Virus record (IMG/VR): IMGVR_UViG_2531839531_000013
Coordinates: 1 to 36,622 of that record
Length of the DNA: 36,622 nucleotides
Direction: 5' to 3' (one strand)
From: a virus
Taxonomy: Duplodnaviria > Heunggongvirae > Uroviricota > Caudoviricetes
Shown: piece by piece, positions 40 to 36,622 of the stretch
Position numbering within the stretch: the stretch's first letter is position 1
Layout: every line of letters begins with the position of its first letter
The notes under the pieces: model-generated
Database searches by the model: none
Told to the model about the DNA's origin: nothing
The model's input: the letters and a program-made list of their open reading frames with translations, nothing else
Program-made: the position numbers and the translations under genes

Positions 40-402
40 GGGGCTGATTCTGGATTCGACGGGATTTGCGAAACCCAAGGTGCATGCCGAGGGGCGGTTG
101 GCCTCGTAAAAAGCCGCAAAAAATAGTCGCAAACGACGAAAACTACGCTTTAGCAGCTTAATAACCTGCTTAGAGCCCTCTCTCCCTAGCCTCCGCTCTT
201 AGGACGGGGATCAAGAGAGGTCAAACCCAAAAGAGATCGCGTGGAAGCCCTGCCTGGGGTTGAAGCGTTAAAACTTAATCAGGCTAGTTTGTTAGTGGCG
301 TGTCCGTCCGCAGCTGGCAAGCGAATGTAAAGACTGACTAAGCATGTAGTACCGAGGATGTAGGAATTTCGGACGCGGGTTCAACTCCCGCCAGCTCCAC
401 CA
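40..402 (+). ncRNA. ssrA: tmRNA (SsrA), complete, about 363 nt, ending in CCA
   Basis: Begins GGGGCTGATTCTGGATTCGACGGG and ends GGTTCAACTCCCGCCAGCTCCACCA; matches my memory of the E. coli tmRNA sequence, including the tag-reading-frame region. Confidence 0.95.
358..402 (+). repeat. attL core: 45-bp ssrA 3' end, identical to the copy at 35131..35175
   Basis: Exact 45-bp direct repeat ATGTAGGAATTTCGGACGCGGGTTCAACTCCCGCCAGCTCCACCA seen at both positions. Confidence 0.9.
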
Positions 403-510: not shown

Positions 511-1284
511 TTACAACTTAAAGAGTTTCGCTTGCCCTGGATTAACAGCTTCGACGTAGTTTTTGACCCCTATTCTGTGCGGCTCATAATTGCTTGAATA
601 GAAATCAATCAGGAAGTCACTCATTTTCTGAGATGTGACTTTCATAACTCCCTTACTCAAAGTTAAATTAAACACGCTAATCTTTGACGATGGTGCCTGA
701 GTTTTACTCATGTTGGCTTGATAACCAGATTTACGCATTGCCACTAGTGCTTCGTCGTAAGCCGCTTGTAATTGGGCCAAATCGTTTGACGAGATGATCA
801 CATCATCCATAAACACACTTAGCTTGAGATCATGATGTTTGTTCAATCGGCGTAGTAAGCTACCAAAATAACTTTTATCTAAGCAGAGGGTTGCAAGTAT
901 TGGAGATTGAACAAAACCAAAAGGGAGGACATGCTTATGTGGACTATGGGACAAGTTTCTTACAGTTGAAAATGTTGAGATTTCCCGCGCTTGAGAATAG
1001 GTGAAGTAGCTCTTTAGATCACGGGTGATACGACTACGGCTCGTTGACTGAAAAAATTGTTTAATATCAACAACGGCAAAAAAATCACTTTTTAAGTGTA
1101 ATCTGGCAGCTTTAAGATGCCCACCAGTTCTTAGATGGTAAAAATAGAGTGGCGGAATCCACTTGTTTCTGACATCCTGAAGTATCTTCCCTCCGACTTT
1201 ACGTGCCTCAACGCTTGGGACATAAACCCAAACCCCGGGCTTAATCTCAAATTTATCTTCCCACCTTTGAACTTCTATTGTCAT
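511..1284 (-). CDS. Compact reverse transcriptase (257 aa), retron-like; family not assignable by eye
   Basis: RT motifs in canonical order: VPSVEARKVGGKI (motif 1-like), FFAVVDIKQFF (motif 2), LPFGFVQSPILATL (motif 4), VFMDDVII (Y/FxDD catalytic motif), NMSKT (motif 6). AT-rich relative to the phage backbone. Confidence 0.8.
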   Translation of the reverse strand: MTIEVQRWEDKFEIKPGVWVYVPSVEARKVGGKILQDVRNKWIPPLYFYHLRTGGHLKAARLHLKSDFFAVVDIKQFFQSTSRSRITRDLKSYFTYSQAREISTFSTVRNLSHSPHKHVLPFGFVQSPILATLCLDKSYFGSLLRRLNKHHDLKLSVFMDDVIISSNDLAQLQAAYDEALVAMRKSGYQANMSKTQAPSSKISVFNLTLSKGVMKVTSQKMSDFLIDFYSSNYEPHRIGVKNYVEAVNPGQAKLFKL

Positions 1285-1426
1285 GAGTTAAATTGTTGTA
1301 GTTGAAGGCCATGTTAAGAACGGCGTAAACCGCACCAACTAAGCCAACAAACGCGGTTGCGCATTTGAGCATAGCGGTGATCAGTTCAACACGCGCCTTA
1401 ACTAAGCCAAGTTCGTTTGTATCCAT
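1253..1426 (-). CDS. Small single-pass membrane protein (57 aa), overlapping the RT start
   Basis: GGAGGA Shine-Dalgarno 7 nt before the second ATG (MDTNELG...); hydrophobic segment LKCATAFVGLVGAVYAVLNMAF; stop overlaps RT start by 32 nt. Alternative start at 1441. Confidence 0.5.
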   Translation of the reverse strand: MDTNELGLVKARVELITAMLKCATAFVGLVGAVYAVLNMAFNYNNLTHDNRSSKVGR

Positions 1427-1572
1427 AACTTGTTCCTCCATAGATACCTGACGTCTCTTAGCGCAAGCGCATGGCCCTAACTAAATAAAAAATAACAACC
1501 AGTTAGCCCAGAAAGCTTAACAAGTCGGCGTCCGATTACATGGCAATCAGGTAATCGGTCCGCAGTCGCAAA

Positions 1573-1684
1573 GCGACAAACTACATATCTACGGAGTGGG
1601 GATAAATCCCCGCTAACGTCAGGCATTGTTAATTTAACCTCAACTTATAGAAAAGTATAGTTTTAAATCATGTAGTTATGTCGC
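1573..1684 (-). ncRNA. Candidate structured RNA bounded by a 14/15-bp long-range inverted repeat, between the ogr stop and the RT operon
   Basis: GCGACAAACTACAT (1573..1586) pairs with ATGTAGTTATGTCGC (1670..1684), enclosing GGGGATAAATCCCC and GTCGCAAAGCGAC hairpins. Strand and transcription are inferred only. Confidence 0.3.
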
Positions 1685-1687
1685 CAT

Positions 1688-1906
1688 TTAAATCGGCAAA
1701 CCCACCTGTTTAAATTTATGAGGATGCGGCTGAACCGGATTTGACTCTTTTGGCGTTGCAATCGAACGAACAAAAGTTTCATGGGTAACAAAAGTATGGC
1801 TGCAGTTAATGTTCTGGCACTGGTTGTAACGCTCTTTGGTCAATGAAGATACCTGAAAACTGCTGCGAGTATGGGCGGCACTTCCACACAGTGGGCAAAT
1901 CATCAT
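1688..1906 (-). CDS. ogr: Late gene transcription activator, Ogr (P2) / B (186) family zinc finger
   Basis: CPLCGSAAH...KERYNQCQNINCSHTF matches the Cys-x2-Cys...Cys-x4-Cys Ogr pattern; about 72 aa from MMICPLCG. ORF track extends the start to 1939. Confidence 0.85.
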   Translation of the reverse strand: MMICPLCGSAAHTRSSFQVSSLTKERYNQCQNINCSHTFVTHETFVRSIATPKESNPVQPHPHKFKQVGLPI

Positions 1907-1996
1907 TTTTCGAGTTCTCCCCATTTTTGCTAAATTCACAATAATGATATCGCATTATTCCATTTTTCAAACTTAAAAGTTCTCCATTGTGAAGAA

Positions 1997-7661: not shown

Positions 7662-8834
7662 TTACGCGCTGACCTGGCTGGCGAAATTCACCAGGTACTG
7701 ATCGGTGATGCGCTGACGCAGCATCAGGTTTTCAAGTGGCGGCACTGGCGTGTAGTCGTAGTCGATGGTGAGTTTTCCGGCTTTCAGCGTGTCTTTGTCG
7801 TTCACCGACTCATCCAGCCAGCAATCACCACCAATGAGATAGCCCTGACTGACCAGGCTGCGCATTTTGGCGCGGATACCTTCGATAATGTCGCGGGCCA
7901 GCGACGGGTTAAGCGGTTTATCCACCGCCCACATGTGTGCTTCTGCCATCGTGTCCATCAGCACCTGCGCCGTGCGGGTGTAGTTTTCGAAGGCAAAGAG
8001 CGGGTCATCACTCAGGCAGCGGGAACCCCAGAAGCGGAAACCGTCTTTACGCACAAGCGTGGTAACGTCGTTCTGGTTCAGCAGACCTGCATCGGTTGCC
8101 GGGTCCTGCAGATCCCAGAACACATCTGCAGAAATTCCGGTGACACCGTTCACGCCCACGTTGGACAGGCTTTTGTGCCATCCGGTCTGCTCGTCAATTT
8201 TGGCGCGCAGACCAAGCGCACGGGCGGTGGCATATGCCGTTGCTTCGGCATTCAGCACCGTGTCCCAGCCAGTAAAGTCAGGCCAGATCAGCATCCCTTC
8301 GCGCTGGCTGAAGTTTTCACGGTAAGTGATCGCCTCCTGCACTGTCTTGCAGCCATACGCTGACAGGTAAGCAAATCCACGCAGGCTTTGCGCCACGCTC
8401 AGCAACTCAGTAGCTACCGCCTTGGTGTCGTGGCCTGGCACGCCGAGAATGCGCGGTTTAACGCCGAGCTGTGACTGGGCAGATAACAGGGCTTTCATAC
8501 CTGTTTTTTTACCTTCAGCAGTCACTGCGCCGATGATATTGGTCGTGGTTTCGTCTTCCGTTTCACCCTGCGGCACACGCACAACAATGGTCACGGGTTT
8601 TGCCTGGTCAGCGATGGCATCCAGCGAACGGGCCAGAGTACCTGACTCACCCGCTTTACCGCTGGCAGTCAGCACATCAGTGATCAGCACGGGTTTATTA
8701 AGAGGAAACATTTTTGCATCGGCATCATCGCCCGTGCAGACCATACCCACGATGGCGGTGCTCACCGTGGTAATAGATCGGGTGCCTTCGTTGACTTCAA
8801 CAACGCGCACCCCGTGGTGGTAATCCTGAGCCAT
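7662..8834 (-). CDS. FI: Contractile tail sheath protein
   Basis: 390 aa; P2 gpFI-like sequence and position. Confidence 0.9.
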
Positions 8835-8910
8835 AGTGGCGAACCTCCTGATTGGATTAGGCTTCGCCCTATGTTGAAGTGATTGTGCCTGACAAACAGC
8901 TAAGCGCAGT

Positions 8911-31806: not shown

Positions 31807-32823
31807 ATGACTGTCAGAAAACAGCCAAACGGCAAATGGTTGTGTGAGTGCTATCCCAATGGACGCAATGGCAAGCGCGTGCGTAAGCAATTTGCTACGA
31901 AAGGAGAAGCCATTGCTTTTGAAAGCTTCACAATGGAAGAAGTGAATAAAAAACCGTGGCTAGGTGAAAAGGATGATCGGCGACGCCTATCAGAATTAAT
32001 TGAGCTTTGGTATTCCCTGTATGGCCAGACACTCGCAGACCCCAAGCGCCTCATGGCGAAACTTAGAATTATCTGTAATGGTCTAGGCGACCCCATCGCC
32101 TCAGAACTGACAGCCGGTGACTTTACAAAATACCGCGAAGCACGGTTAAAAGGCGACGTTCGTAACGAAGACGGCACACTAATGTCGCCAGTAAAACCAC
32201 GCACGGTGAATCTTGAGCAACGTAACCTATCATCGGTTTTCGGCACATTGAAAAAACTAGGCCACTGGTCAGCACCAAATCCTCTCGCCGGGCTGCCAAC
32301 ATTTAAAATCGCTGAGGGGGAACTGGCGTTCCTGACCTCGGAAGAAATTAAACGTCTGCTAGATGCCTGCGCTGATTCTCAAAACCCCAGTCTGCTTTTG
32401 ATTGCAAAAATATGCCTGGCCACCGGCGCACGCTGGAGTGAAGCCGAAAACCTGCAGGGCCATCAGTTATCTAAATACCGCATCACTTATACCAAGACGA
32501 AGGGCAAGAAAAACCGCACCGTGCCGATATCTCAAGATCTGTATGACGAACTCCCCAAGAACAGAGGGAAGCTATTCACCCCGTGCAGAAAAGCCTTTGA
32601 ACGGGCAGTAAAGCGAGCTGGCATCGAGCTGCCAGAGGGCCAATGCACTCACGTGCTACGTCATACATTCGCCAGTCATTTTATGATGAATGGCGGAAAC
32701 ATACTGGTCCTACGCGATATTCTGGGCCATGCCGATATAAAAATGACGATGATTTACGCCCACTTTTCGCCGGATCATCTTGAAGATGCAGTTACTAAAA
32801 ACCCTTTATGCAACTTAAGATAG
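31807..32823 (+). CDS. int: Tyrosine integrase, P2 Int family
   Basis: 338 aa; matches recalled P2 Int over TGARWSEA, HxLRHxFA and ILGH...M.YAHF catalytic regions. Confidence 0.9.
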   Translation: MTVRKQPNGKWLCECYPNGRNGKRVRKQFATKGEAIAFESFTMEEVNKKPWLGEKDDRRRLSELIELWYSLYGQTLADPKRLMAKLRIICNGLGDPIASELTAGDFTKYREARLKGDVRNEDGTLMSPVKPRTVNLEQRNLSSVFGTLKKLGHWSAPNPLAGLPTFKIAEGELAFLTSEEIKRLLDACADSQNPSLLLIAKICLATGARWSEAENLQGHQLSKYRITYTKTKGKKNRTVPISQDLYDELPKNRGKLFTPCRKAFERAVKRAGIELPEGQCTHVLRHTFASHFMMNGGNILVLRDILGHADIKMTMIYAHFSPDHLEDAVTKNPLCNLR

Positions 32824-33201: not shown

Positions 33202-34938
33202 CTACTCAAGAAGATATTCTAACTCATCTTTTATCGGGATAACTTGCTCATAAAGTCGGTGATATGACTTCCCAATTGCGCCTCTGAATTGTATTAACTT
33301 TGGTGGCTTGTTACCTATATTAATAATATGGTCTTGAGCTATACCTGGGTAGGGATCAATAAATACAATTTCAGATATACCTAACTGATAAGCTTTTTTC
33401 GCACACAGCTCACAGGGACTGGCAGTTGTATATAACCTCCCCCCCTGAACGCCAATGCCACCATATTTTGCAAGTTGTAAAAATGCGTTTTCCTCAGCAT
33501 GTAATGCACGTGTATGAACTTGATTACCTTTTTTATCTTTATCAAGATCATTATGTATATCTTTAAAACAATAAGATAAGTTCCTGCCTCTATAAATATC
33601 ACCAGTTTTATCTATCGCCCTAAAATTTAATAGTTTCTCATTAGCTTTAATTCTGAAAGAACTATTATTTCTCTCATAATGACTGTACACTTTTTCATCA
33701 AAGTCGTTCATTAGGCCATCTAGCGATCTCATAGAGCAAGGAATCTGACCGTTGGCGACATCATTCCAACCCACTGATTTTATTGAATTTTCACCATCAG
33801 TTACTACAGCTCCCACCTGTCTAGATATACAACCAGAGTTTAATTTTACCGTATACGCAACTTGCATAACCCTTTCCATTGCAGTAGGTGTTATCAGACC
33901 AGGATGCTTCATCAGTGCGATGTACCACGCTAATTGTGCTTTTAAAATATTGTCATTATCAAATTCATTTTTTGGGTTAAAAATGTGTATATCTGATAGT
34001 TCAATGCATTTAGTTACATTTGGATTAGTGAGATGTTTGTAAGAGTTATCACCTTTACCTGACTCTACAGAATCTATTTCCTCTATCTGCTTTTCAGAAA
34101 ACTTATGTAGTTTCCGCAAATAGTTTGTTCGATGTTCATCTGGGGCATTTATTGACATTAAATGAAATGCAGAATATCTATCCTTAAAAAATTTTGCTTC
34201 ATATGGATTTCTAATAGCATCTATGACAATTAATGCGTTATCTCTTTTGCTTTTTCTTATTAATTTAATAACCCTATTAATAGTTTCCGGCAAATGAAAA
34301 ACAGATTTAGGTATAAACTCTTTATCTTCAAAATCGACTTCAATACGCCCACGGCGTCTAATTGACTTACCTGCTAACTGATAGACTGAAACATATAAAT
34401 TTGAGTTTATCGCATTTAGTTCAGCTTTGAATTCCTTAGTAAATTTTCTAACTAACCTCAAAATTGATATAAATTTATTAATCGTTTTTTCATTAAGCTT
34501 CAATTCACTATTATGATCAAGCAAATTCTCAATTACATTTTTAAATCTTGTTAAAATGAGATTATCTGAAAATACACCAAAAGTTAATACATTATCTAAA
34601 TGCTCTTTACTGATAGATTTATTAGATGATAGAATAAACTCAGAAGCTTCTTCAACTGTTAACATCAAAAGATACGCTGAGATTAGGTCACTCACCTTAA
34701 TTGAGTAAAAATTTTCCCAGTGATTTTCTGCGAATTTTTTAACTATATTATAACGATGGACATCCAATCCCTTGTAAAAACCCTGTAATTTACTTACATC
34801 AGGGAAGACTGTTTTTTCGTTTTCAAGAATATTAGCTGTTGTTGTGCAACCAGAACCAGTTCGACCTGTCAAACCGACTAAAATAAACTGCCCATTTTCA
34901 AGGAAAAGCTCACTAACGAATTTTTTTTCTTTCATCAC
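33202..34938 (-). CDS. P-loop NTPase/kinase-like domain fused to a cytidine/dCMP deaminase domain (AvcD/DCD-like)
   Basis: N-terminal glycine-rich loop VGLTGRTGSGCTT; C-terminal zinc-deaminase signature HAEENA ... SPCELCAKK; 578 aa; very AT-rich. Confidence 0.75.
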   Translation of the reverse strand: MMKEKKFVSELFLENGQFILVGLTGRTGSGCTTTANILENEKTVFPDVSKLQGFYKGLDVHRYNIVKKFAENHWENFYSIKVSDLISAYLLMLTVEEASEFILSSNKSISKEHLDNVLTFGVFSDNLILTRFKNVIENLLDHNSELKLNEKTINKFISILRLVRKFTKEFKAELNAINSNLYVSVYQLAGKSIRRRGRIEVDFEDKEFIPKSVFHLPETINRVIKLIRKSKRDNALIVIDAIRNPYEAKFFKDRYSAFHLMSINAPDEHRTNYLRKLHKFSEKQIEEIDSVESGKGDNSYKHLTNPNVTKCIELSDIHIFNPKNEFDNDNILKAQLAWYIALMKHPGLITPTAMERVMQVAYTVKLNSGCISRQVGAVVTDGENSIKSVGWNDVANGQIPCSMRSLDGLMNDFDEKVYSHYERNNSSFRIKANEKLLNFRAIDKTGDIYRGRNLSYCFKDIHNDLDKDKKGNQVHTRALHAEENAFLQLAKYGGIGVQGGRLYTTASPCELCAKKAYQLGISEIVFIDPYPGIAQDHIINIGNKPPKLIQFRGAIGKSYHRLYEQVIPIKDELEYLLE

Positions 34939-35130: not shown

Positions 35131-35175
35131 ATGTAGGAATTTCGGACGCGGGTTCAACTCCCGCCAGCTCCACCA
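35131..35175 (+). repeat. attR core: displaced original ssrA 3' end
   Basis: Identical to 358..402 and followed by the native ssrA terminator. Confidence 0.9.
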
Positions 35176-35380: not shown

Positions 35381-36622
35381 ATGGCAAGACAAACCAAACC
35401 TCTATCCGTTAAAGAAATAGAATCAGCCAAACCCAAGGAGGCGGACTACGTTCTCTATGATGGCGATGGCCTTGAGCTACTCATTAAATCCAGCGGGAGT
35501 AAAATCTGGCAGTTTCGCTACATTCGCCCTGTCACCAAGAAACGAGCAAAGAAGAGCATAGGCTCCTACCCGTCAGTTACCCTTGCCGATGCCAGAAACT
35601 ACCGTGCAGAGTCCCGCTCACTACTGGCTAAACAGATCGATCCGCAGGAACATCAGCAAGAACAATTGCGCAGTTCGCTGGAAGCCAAAACCAACACTTT
35701 CCAACTCGTAGCTGAACGTTGGTGGAATGTGAAGAAAGCCAGTGTGACAGAGGACTATGCGGAAGATATCTGGCGCTCTCTTGAAAGAGACGTCTTTCCT
35801 GCGATTGGCGACGTTAGCGTTACAGATATTAAAGCTCATACACTGGTTCAGGCCGTACAACCGGTTCAGGCCAGAGGAGCACTGGAAACTGTTCGTCGCC
35901 TGTGCCAACGTATTAATGAGGTCATGATCTATGCCCAGAACACAGGGCTGATTGATGCTGTTCCCAGCGTTAATATCGGTAAAGCCTTCGAGAAGCCTCA
36001 GAAAAAGAACATGCCCAGCATTCGACCGGATCAGCTACCTCAGTTAATGCAGACGATGCGAACAGCCAGCATTAGCCTTTCCACACGCTGCCTGTTCATG
36101 TGGCAACTTCTTACTATTACCCGCCCTGCCGAAGCGGCTGAAGCTCTCTGGGAAGAGGTAGACATAGAAGCGCGAGAGTGGAAGATTCCTGCAGCACGCA
36201 TGAAAATGAACCGCGACCATACTGTTCCATTGTCAGATGAAGCAATTGCGATACTAGAGATGATGAAGCCGTTAAGTGGAAATCGAGAATTTATCTTTCC
36301 CAGCCGCATCAAGCCAAACCAGCCGATGAACAGTCAGACCGTAAACGCATCGCTAAAACGCGCAGGTTTTGGTGGGGTGCTCGTTTCACACGGCCTGCGA
36401 TCTATCGCCAGTACAGCCCTTAATGAGCAGGGATTTCCACCTGATGTTATTGAGGCTGCACTTGCTCATGTGGATAAGAATGAGGTTCGTCGTGCGTATA
36501 ACCGTAGTGATTATCTTGAGCAGCGACGGCCTATGATGCAGTGGTGGGCTGATTTTGTGATGGCTGCAGATCACGGTAGTATGATTGAAGGAGGGATAAA
36601 GGCAATGCGGTTAGTTGGATGA
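35381..36622 (+). CDS. intA: Tyrosine integrase of a second ssrA-associated island (CP4-57 IntA-like)
   Basis: 413 aa, MARQTKPLSVKEIESAKPKEADYVLYDGDGLELLIKSSGSKIWQFRY... resembles E. coli IntA as recalled; lies directly downstream of the displaced ssrA end. Confidence 0.85.
   Translation: MARQTKPLSVKEIESAKPKEADYVLYDGDGLELLIKSSGSKIWQFRYIRPVTKKRAKKSIGSYPSVTLADARNYRAESRSLLAKQIDPQEHQQEQLRSSLEAKTNTFQLVAERWWNVKKASVTEDYAEDIWRSLERDVFPAIGDVSVTDIKAHTLVQAVQPVQARGALETVRRLCQRINEVMIYAQNTGLIDAVPSVNIGKAFEKPQKKNMPSIRPDQLPQLMQTMRTASISLSTRCLFMWQLLTITRPAEAAEALWEEVDIEAREWKIPAARMKMNRDHTVPLSDEAIAILEMMKPLSGNREFIFPSRIKPNQPMNSQTVNASLKRAGFGGVLVSHGLRSIASTALNEQGFPPDVIEAALAHVDKNEVRRAYNRSDYLEQRRPMMQWWADFVMAADHGSMIEGGIKAMRLVG

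Follow-up and report, generated by a model that had tools for sequence, protein, structure and literature searches.

The 36,622-nucleotide (nt) stretch of Caudoviricetes DNA analyzed here, positions 1 to 36,622 of IMG/VR record IMGVR_UViG_2531839531_000013 and hereafter called the window, contains a P2-like prophage of 34.8 kb, in which the left attachment site, attL, is followed first by a small module on the minus strand. This module comprises a structured noncoding RNA (ncRNA), an open reading frame (ORF) for a mini-protein and, overlapping it, the gene for a compact retron-like reverse transcriptase (RT). The genes and borders of the locus are as follows.

40-402: ssrA, the gene for transfer-messenger RNA (tmRNA).
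377..402, plus strand: attL core, which is the 3' end of ssrA and has an exact 26-nt copy at attR (35150-35175).
511..1284, minus strand: compact RT of 257 amino acids (aa), matching Pfam RVT_1 over residues 49-200 (E 1.8e-21, 77 bits).
1253..1426, minus strand: mini-protein gene, an ORF of 57 aa (MDTNELGL...LNMAFNYNNLTHDNRSSKVGR), annotated in RefSeq as a 174-nt 'hypothetical protein'.
1444..1626, minus strand: retron-type (msr-msd-like) ncRNA, ~183 nt from a1 to a2, supported by its fold and a covariance model.
1688..1939, minus strand: ogr, the late-gene activator (Pfam Ogr_Delta, E 6.7e-22, and RefSeq annotation).

The 26-nt att sequence occurs in exact form twice in the window. Since the RT stop codon lies only 109 nt from the attL core, the module makes up the outermost genes of the prophage, while its inner boundary is set by ogr, the first core P2 gene. 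P2 itself has no gene downstream of ogr, where only a terminator, Int/IHF sites and attP are found. GC content is 39-43% over the module (about 400-1400), compared with 54-60% in the neighboring phage (tail) genes. Placed between attL and ogr, the module is outside the P2 variable locus described in the P2/P4 defense hotspot paper (Rousset et al. 2022, PMC9122126), in which ogr and attL are not mentioned. The exact locus was present in 28 of 5426 complete Escherichia coli genomes. The same RT, at 99% protein identity, was also found in 13 unannotated Klebsiella phage records of 35.6-46.7 kb (OK490395 and 12 others, Klebsiella phage Kp48xx-2), which are prophage-derived and in which the RT lies within about 110 nt of the record end; thus, essentially one P2-like phage with this cargo circulates in E. 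coli and Klebsiella.

The 245 nt that separate ogr from the small ORF are far from featureless. Their minimum free energy is -67.7 kcal/mol (z -4.1 against shuffled sequences), and comparison of related loci resolved the following elements, listed in the 5' to 3' order of the RNA.

1631..1636, minus strand: predicted promoter-like -10 hexamer TAAATT, ending ~5-7 nt before a1.
1615..1626, minus strand: a1 arm (AUGCCUGACGUU) of the closing stem, pairing with 1444-1455.
1613..1614, minus strand: invariant A-G immediately 3' of a1.
1598..1611, minus strand: stem-loop SL1 (GGGG AUUUAU CCCC), present in the folds; related loci also have a hairpin here.
1585..1596, minus strand: b1 (CUCCGUAGAUAU), an anti-Shine-Dalgarno segment in the msr-like half, a 12-bp complement of 1436-1447.
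1565..1577, minus strand: stem-loop SL2 (GUCGC UUU GCGAC; family consensus GUCAC UNU GUGAU).
1479..1564, minus strand: variable hairpins (msd-like), whose 3' end is the conserved UUAGUU at 1479-1484 (UUGGUU in the family).
1461..1470, minus strand: GCGC-UU-GCGC, a hairpin that hardly varies, inside CAUGCGC...GCGCUA(A/G)G and adjoining a2 on its 5' side.
1444..1455, minus strand: a2 arm (GACGUCAGGUAU), forming a 12-bp stem with a1.
1435..1447, minus strand: b2 (GUAUCUAUGGAG, 1436-1447), which includes most of the Shine-Dalgarno sequence GGAGG (1435-1439).

The same order, namely a1, AG, SL1, b1, SL2, variable hairpin(s), UUGGUU, the CAU-GCGC-UUU-GCGC-UAGG hairpin, a2, b2 and AUG, was observed in 80 related assembly loci. 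To assess covariation, we used a 52-sequence MAFFT alignment of related loci. For the a1/a2 stem, compensatory double changes were seen in six of the seven core pairs, and 93% of pairs were standard, a proportion that dropped to 22-49% once the 3' partner columns were slid by 1-3 positions. Directly after a1, A17 and G18 of the alignment were invariant in all 52 sequences and were retained in the 77-sequence model alignment; this AG sits 0-4 nt after a1 in all aligned loci and could pair in the base of SL1 in many of them. By analogy with retrons, G1613 is therefore a candidate for the branching (priming) guanosine. SL2 is a 5-bp helix that was 87% paired across the 52 loci, and the A-U to G-C double change in the window is a compensatory variant. 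In the msd-like region, one or two hairpins persist while sequence and length vary between loci, and the UU.GUU columns that follow are invariant or nearly so. The GCGC hairpin was 99% paired, with two pairs that never vary, and is held at the same distance from the RT in most loci examined, so it is probably an RT recognition or initiation site. Together, the compensatory changes indicate that the RNA is under ongoing selection.

When RNAalifold was run on the MAFFT alignment, only a1/a2 and the GCGC hairpin were recovered, the middle being variable in length, and SL2 was entered by hand. The covariance model built from the 52 sequences (R1) was then searched against the window and 84 related loci, some of which were not seeds. 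R1 matched the window with 77.1 bits (E 1.5e-17), at 1412-1629 because the model also takes in the ribosome-binding site (RBS) and start codon, and gave a single match per locus in 77 of the 85 genome-derived sources (76 loci and the window), on the RT strand and directly upstream of the RT module genes. Among 53 IMG/VR viral contigs that had been retrieved independently through the RT and were outside model building, 51 were matched; the two R1-negative contigs have just 172 nt of upstream sequence. An Rfam 15 scan of positions 1-2500 (E<=10) returned no family in the ncRNA region, where the sole match was a chance one to RsmY (E 9.8) on the opposite strand.

The RNA also appears, judging by sequence comparison, to be transcribed from its own promoter, with a start at or just before a1, as in retrons. 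Of 75 distinct related loci, 49 have their best TAnnnT hexamer ending 5-9 nt ahead of a common point next to a1, often accompanied by a TTGACA-like -35 box. A generic promoter scan found no minus-strand promoter upstream of the ncRNA, the -10 box having emerged only in the cross-locus comparison, and no Ogr-dependent late promoter (TGT-N12-ACA) was seen by eye in 1627-1690. The promoter and terminator scan also predicted no intrinsic terminator after ogr on the minus strand, though P2 has one there; transcription may therefore run from ogr through 1688-1627 into the retron-like RNA. The layout is that required of retron RNAs (PMC7736814): contiguous, with a1/a2 ends that enclose msr-like stem-loops and a variable msd-like hairpin. 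As read from its sequence, the ncRNA thus bears the hallmarks of an msr-msd RNA, and a DNA copy would be its expected product.

A second long helix crosses this architecture. The anti-Shine-Dalgarno segment b1 is complementary to b2, which in the window overlaps the last 4 nt of a2, and the complementarity holds across the family with different sequences: CCUCAUC/GAUGAGG, CCUCUAUUC/GAAUAGAGG, CCUUUGACAUA/UAUGUCAAAGG, CUCUCUGUAC/GUAUAGAGAG and UACCCAUCC/GGAUGGGUA. Because the position of b1/b2 drifts by a few nucleotides among loci, we scored cognate against permuted partners rather than fixed columns. The cognate helix score was 18.8, compared with 13.3 ± 0.35 for permuted partners (z 15.8), and none of 20000 permutations reached the cognate mean. 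Since the order is a1, b1, a2, b2, the two helices cross, which means either a pseudoknot or mutually exclusive folds. When either helix was enforced, the two folds of the window lay 0.3 kcal/mol apart; over 54 loci the difference was 0.9 ± 3.6 kcal/mol, with 32 of the 54 within 3 kcal/mol, and the unconstrained minimum-energy structure switched between both folds with fragment length. We infer from these results that the leader is bistable.

The start codon governed by this Shine-Dalgarno sequence is that of the mini-protein. The small ORF spans 1253..1441 (62 aa) from its first ATG, while the second in-frame ATG, at 1426, has GGAGG 8 nt upstream and is the start used by RefSeq; the resulting 57-aa ORF shares 32 nt with the start of the RT gene. 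Of the 80 related loci examined, 69 have a counterpart of this ORF ahead of the RT (median 52 aa); in all 39 evaluable loci it runs into the RT start, by 4-86 nt, and in 37 of these 39 (L001-L080) the RT is in the +1 frame relative to it. The protein consists of one long hydrophobic or amphipathic helix of ~25-30 residues ending in Asn42-Tyr43, the only residues that are invariant at a mean identity of 22%, and we therefore call it the NY mini-protein; its consensus is M-KKF..-RLV-(helix)-LLNMAFNY-(5-15 residues). All homologues in databases are annotated as 'hypothetical protein'. No relatives were found when its profile was searched against PDB sequences and Pfam, or its single sequence against PADLOC, NCBIfam and PHROGs. 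The matches obtained were at chance level, and sequence comparison thus supports neither a split N-terminal extension of the RT nor any toxin family.

In the window copy, the best 19-aa Kyte-Doolittle window scores 1.94 with one charged residue, which is transmembrane-like. Across the family, 67% of members reach a hydropathy of 1.6, the helix core averages 3.1 charged residues and alphaproteobacterial versions score 0.6-0.9. In at least five sequences the mini-protein is fused in frame to the RT.

P0036, Klebsiella pneumoniae: in-frame fusion of 302 aa, for which the assembly collection has 7802 indexed blocks.
P0020, Serratia: in-frame fusion.
L068, Kistimonas: in-frame fusion.
L043, Desulfobulbales: in-frame fusion.
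P0201, metagenomic cluster: in-frame fusion.

The K. pneumoniae fusion locus retains the same ncRNA upstream, including a1/a2 and b1/b2. These fusions suggest that the mini-protein works together with the RT, probably 1:1, and not as a free toxin only. Given the +1 frame and the in-frame fusions, an occasional frameshift-made fusion protein is a possibility, though shared ancestry explains the common frame equally well. When the natural fusion P0036 was modeled with AlphaFold2, no confident docking was obtained, and the N-terminal helices had a predicted local distance difference test (pLDDT) of 56-68, probably because few alignment rows cover that part.

These results bear on a first-pass annotation of the locus, made from the letters of the window. 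Its description of a 257-aa RT ORF with a catalytic FMDD, overlapped by a 57-aa ORF, in AT-rich DNA between the ssrA attL and ogr where P2 has no genes, agrees with what is reported here. Its two-gene operon is right as to the overlapping genes and incomplete otherwise, the conserved ncRNA having been overlooked as spacer. The single-transmembrane character that it gave the small protein fits the window copy and is not a consistent property of the family.

The RT itself has an intact active site by its motifs. The catalytic FMDD occupies residues 158-161 (codons 802-813), and D73, D160 and D161 are invariant in 33 homologues. No extra domain was detected in the 257-aa protein by Pfam or in its AlphaFold2 model, in which the thumb comprises only about 50 residues. 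Retron RTs carry two signatures (Mestre et al. 2020, PMC7736814): region X, NAxxH, in which H is the most conserved, and region Y, VTG in RT7, whose glycine is the most conserved retron residue. Here, region X reads A59-A-R-L-H63, with H63 invariant and aligned to the H of Ec86 NATPH, and with a nearly invariant Ala at the Asn position; region Y reads V204-F-N206, aligned to VTG, with F205 and N206 invariant in the family.

In profile searches, retron models scored highest and always weakly. The best PADLOC match was RT_VI (62.7 bits), followed by I-B, IX, II-A and III-A, all weak, and in each of the 33 family members tested RT_VI outscored the other retron types (best E 1.9e-24). These 33 diverse homologues gave matches to all retron types (E 1e-11 to 1e-24), none of which reached family level; against the profile of the family itself, members score 220-367 bits. 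With NCBIfam, retron_St85_RT reached 49.5 bits against a cut-off of 235 and another retron model 20.5 against 450. The UG/Abi/DRT class fits poorly, the best UG/DRT model in PADLOC being UG33 (33 bits), with Drt3a at 17.6 bits against a cut-off of 200 and no additional domain. The same is true of group II intron RT/maturases: TIGR04416 scored 23.3 bits against 300, there is no intron RNA in 1-2500 and the thumb is short. The sole PDB match by sequence was to Ec86 RT entries (E 5e-4).

The predicted structure points the same way. The AlphaFold2 model, built from the 33-sequence alignment, had a mean pLDDT of 95.4, and when it was compared to the PDB by Foldseek, the top 18 matches were all retron RTs (Ec86, Ec83, Eco7/Ec78, type I-A, Eco8 and Eco2; E 1e-15 to 1e-9, template modeling score 0.66-0.77), the best being Ec86 RT (E 1.5e-15, score 0.73); G2L4, DRT9, group II intron and diversity-generating retroelement (DGR) RTs ranked below them. 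Identity to retron RTs is distant (15-19%). In the alignment to Ec86, residue 19 of the RT corresponds to Ec86 residue 64 and residue 221 to Ec86 residue 260 of 320, from which it follows that the compactness comes from the ends, ~45 residues shorter at the N terminus and ~24 at the C terminus. Two independent searches gave lengths of ~245-270 aa for most listed family members, compared with 306-370 aa for solved retron RTs, and the best 150 clusters are mostly of this length, the exceptions being shorter fragments and a small number of longer forms, fusions among them; the short RT is thus a family trait and not a truncation. Together, these data place the RT in a retron or retron-like lineage by both sequence and predicted fold, as a distant relative that fits none of the 13 described retron types (PADLOC, NCBIfam and own-profile scores). 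The profile searches and structure prediction that the first-pass annotation had proposed therefore bear out its view of a retron-like RT, shorter than typical retron RTs and outside the named families.

The module is widespread. We found 162 RT relatives among GTDB species representatives, and a search of 1.84 billion representatives gave 284 or more 50%-identity clusters at E<=1e-30. The family is confined to Proteobacteria-like hosts. In alpha-, beta-, gamma-, delta- and zeta-proteobacterial genomes and in prophages, its three parts are strictly conserved together and keep the same order and orientation. No further gene is conserved beside them, which indicates that the module is self-contained. 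Of 53 IMG/VR contigs, 29 have the 3' end of the RT no more than 2.7 kb from a contig end (22 of them within 1 kb), as do 14 of the 20 contigs of P2-like size. In Serratia the module is again the terminal gene set of a prophage, beside tail-fiber genes; in Endozoicomonas it adjoins a type I restriction–modification system and an integrase; and in Herbaspirillum it stands alone amid housekeeping genes. In K. pneumoniae (L082-L085), the fusion gene (8001-8909) lies in a variable region between umuDC and an SRAP (YedK-like) gene. The variable stretch beside this fusion locus holds, in one strain, another RT of 494 aa.

On balance, and with moderate confidence, we favor a reading of the whole as a retron-like module in which the RT copies the adjacent RNA after priming at the invariant G, the leader has two states, the NY mini-protein is a partner of the RT and the module serves the prophage against competing phages. 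It would be laid out as its own promoter, the msr-msd-like ncRNA, the ~50-aa NY mini-protein and the compact RT, carried as terminal cargo of a P2-like prophage. The RT would bind the conserved GCGC hairpin and the a1/a2 region and prime from the 2'-OH of the invariant G, so that the variable hairpin region would be copied into a small single-stranded DNA, with the template removed by host RNase H, as in retrons. In the a1/a2 state, the RNA would be competent to prime reverse transcription and the RBS would be free, while in the b1/b2 state the RBS would be masked; the way in which the retron RNA is folded or processed would thereby be coupled to translation of the mini-protein and, via the overlap, of the RT. 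The mini-protein would act in a 1:1 complex with the RT as a detachable N-terminal module, and hydrophobic versions such as the window copy might also be membrane anchors or effectors that act on the membrane. For the prophage, the module as a whole would then work against phages, by abortive infection or exclusion. From genomic context, such a cargo role is plausible, given the position at the prophage end, the restriction–modification neighbor and a dCTP-deaminase defense gene on the same prophage.

Several observations weigh against this account. Both RT signatures that define retrons are changed (NAxxH to AAxxH; VTG to V/A-F-N), and the most conserved RNA elements adjoin a2 and are not the msr stem-loops, unlike in textbook retrons. 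The two helices a1/a2 and b1/b2 might coexist as a pseudoknot, a matter that nearest-neighbor energies cannot decide. The role of the mini-protein is ambiguous, its hydrophobicity not being conserved and the fusion model showing no confident docking. Copies amid housekeeping genes, as in Herbaspirillum, or by umuDC, as in most K. pneumoniae assemblies, would also suit a domesticated, non-defense role. Finally, DNA synthesis, branching at G1613 and an effect on phages are all inferred.

A bolder version of the favored reading, which we hold to be rather doubtful, takes the leader to be a genuine switch between two states, in which the logic of retrons is combined with that of type I toxin-antitoxin systems: b1 would be a built-in antisense that hides the mini-protein RBS, so that RNA folding, processing or damage by a phage would be read out as translation of the mini-protein and of the RT coupled to it. 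Control would then be exerted at translation, in contrast to the protein-level sequestration of a ready-made effector in all characterized retrons. As a further twist, the invariant Tyr of the mini-protein may take part in priming.

Two other explanations survive the evidence in part. In the first, the module is a classical retron with a membrane toxin: the mini-protein would form pores like Hok or TisB, would be restrained by the RT and its msDNA (multicopy single-stranded DNA), and would kill the cell once freed by phage interference, comparable to the effector with two transmembrane helices of type IV retrons. The transmembrane-like window copy, with its single charge, fits such a toxin, as does RBS sequestration, which is typical of small toxin mRNAs; moreover, no other conserved effector gene occurs in any context, and the module is prophage-terminal. 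Against this, one-third of the family falls under the transmembrane threshold, about three charges are found on average in the helix core, and the alphaproteobacterial copies score lower still. The five in-frame fusions and the obligatory overlap would make RT synthesis depend on translating the supposed toxin, which has no similarity to known toxin families. We therefore regard a membrane toxin as possible but unlikely.

In the second, the mini-protein is a split-off N-terminal extension of the RT that stands for the ~45 missing residues, and the module is an effector-less (msr-msd)-RT cassette whose function is regulatory or exerted in trans, and not necessarily defensive. The alignment of RT residue 19 with Ec86 residue 64 leaves room for such an extension, the fusions join the two parts in one chain, retron clades 2 and 11 are known to include (msr-msd)-RT cassettes that stand alone (PMC7736814), and copies also occur in housekeeping neighborhoods. 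However, the RT folds confidently by itself, the fusion model shows no confident packing, the mini-protein profile has no similarity to any solved retron RT, and a conserved RNA switch at the mini-protein RBS would be left unexplained. A split extension is thus a tentative alternative, and one that we do not expect to hold.

Protein priming is improbable. Here the invariant Tyr of the mini-protein, rather than an RNA 2'-OH, would prime DNA synthesis, as with AbiK/Abi-P2-type RTs and hepadnaviruses. That Asn-Tyr is the sole invariant feature of so divergent a protein, that the gene of this protein accompanies the RT gene and is in some cases fused with it, and that the retron VTG motif, which positions the msr, is replaced, all agree with this idea. 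Yet the RNA retains the retron hallmarks of an a1/a2 stem and an invariant AG, the RT scores nearer to retron than to UG/Abi RTs (63 bits versus 33 for UG33), and the invariant Tyr could equally be a docking residue. Lastly, a functionless remnant of a group II intron or other mobile retroelement, the case that the first-pass annotation had named against itself together with a lack of RT-family matches, can be dismissed: an RT this short, in AT-rich DNA at the border of a mobile element, might look like one, but RVT_1 and the retron models do match the RT, the group II model stays far under its cut-off with no intron RNA nearby, and the ncRNA, the partner ORF, and both the length and the catalytic residues of the RT have been kept across 284 clusters and several proteobacterial classes, which excludes a degraded element. 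Recent copies of a single element are excluded as well, by protein identities of 35-50%.

Compared with characterized systems, the module is closest to Ec86 (Retron-Eco1, type II-A), the best-matching solved RT. The two share the same palm/fingers/thumb fold, an upstream ncRNA closed by a1/a2 with a conserved G after a1, a promoter, predicted in the window, that starts transcription at a1, and the lack of an RNase H domain. They differ in that identity is 18%, both RT termini are shorter here, and AAxxH and VFN replace the Ec86 motifs. The partner of Ec86 is a nucleoside deoxyribosyltransferase-like effector, whereas here the NY mini-protein is encoded between ncRNA and RT; the window leader has an RBS-sequestering alternative helix; and msDNA is a presumed product of the window module. 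Type VI retrons (PMC7736814), whose RT model scored best in PADLOC, also have a short RT (profile length 279) and small accessory proteins. However, 63 bits is far under the family level, and the type VI partners are Cro/C1 helix-turn-helix proteins of 91-110 aa and three-helix proteins of 75-79 aa, in contrast to the single NY helix; the PADLOC accessory-protein models gave no match to the module.

Type IV retrons (Retron-Eco6/Ec48), with an RT and an effector of two transmembrane helices, are likewise minimal two-protein systems with a small hydrophobic partner that travel as prophage or island cargo, and by analogy their abortive-infection logic would suit the window module too. Here, though, the partner is one helix in a protein of ~50 aa that is not uniformly hydrophobic, lies upstream of and overlaps the RT and is sometimes fused to it, and the RT is not of type IV. 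In clades 2 (Ec107-like) and 11, the (msr-msd)-RT cassettes that stand alone also combine an RT and an ncRNA without a recognizable enzymatic effector; they differ in that the PADLOC models RT_Ec107-like and RT_outgroup match only at E about 1e-11, and that a strictly conserved mini-protein and another ncRNA architecture are present here. With type I toxin-antitoxin mRNAs (hok/sok, tisB/istR), in which the Shine-Dalgarno sequence of a small hydrophobic-helix ORF is paired upstream and overlapping frames couple translation, the likeness is one of working manner, not of ancestry: here no antisense small RNA gene was identified, the sequestering segment lies in a retron-like RNA, the coupled downstream gene is an RT, and toxicity is hypothetical.

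We therefore describe the module as a previously undescribed retron-like variant that fits none of the 13 types, with the RBS-masking switch as its most unusual feature. No description of the RT family was found in full-text literature, many subscription papers being beyond the search, so that absence is not proof, and neither the partner protein nor the RNA had a match in PADLOC 2023, NCBIfam (June 2026), Pfam or Rfam 15. A 2026 retron survey retained proteins with at least 160 bits on a general retron hidden Markov model (HMM) (bioRxiv 10.64898/2026.05.14.725207), and, judged from its weak type-specific scores, the family is probably below this threshold. It has thus probably been missed because the RT falls under the thresholds of retron surveys and the partner ORF is tiny.

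If this account holds, a large unclassified branch, carried by many Enterobacterales prophages, is added to the retrons, and the NAxxH and VTG signatures are not universal among them. A covarying helix that masks the RBS and is energetically balanced against the priming stem suggests a new coupling between retron RNA and its output. At ~255 aa, the RT would be among the smallest scaffolds with a defined cognate template RNA and hence attractive for retron genome editing, where delivery is size-limited. The attL–ogr junction, and prophage termini generally, would be a cargo site of P2-like phages beyond the published hotspots.

The prophage carries further cargo in two regions.

33202-34938, minus strand: 578-aa protein with a cytidine/dCMP deaminase domain, matching PADLOC dCTPase (dCTP-deaminase anti-phage defense; 483.6 bits, E 2.9e-145).
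23522-25251, minus strand: second low-GC island (39-47% GC), adjoining replication gene A (25960-28374).

The deaminase gene lies in DNA of 30-34% GC between the prophage integrase (31807-32823) and attR. With the module on the attL side and this gene near attR, AT-rich cargo is thus present at both prophage ends. The island at 23522-25251 has genes for a DUF4145 protein with weak similarity to PD-T7-4 (E 1.2e-6) and for a protein with an HNH domain, after which comes a DinI-like gene; given its position beside gene A, this low-GC cargo at 23.5-25.3 kb is probably the known P2 variable or defense hotspot. Directly after attR, a second tyrosine integrase of the P4 type (Arm-DNA-bind_3, Phage_int_M and Phage_integrase; 35381-36622, plus strand) runs out of the window, which suggests that another element is integrated in tandem at ssrA.

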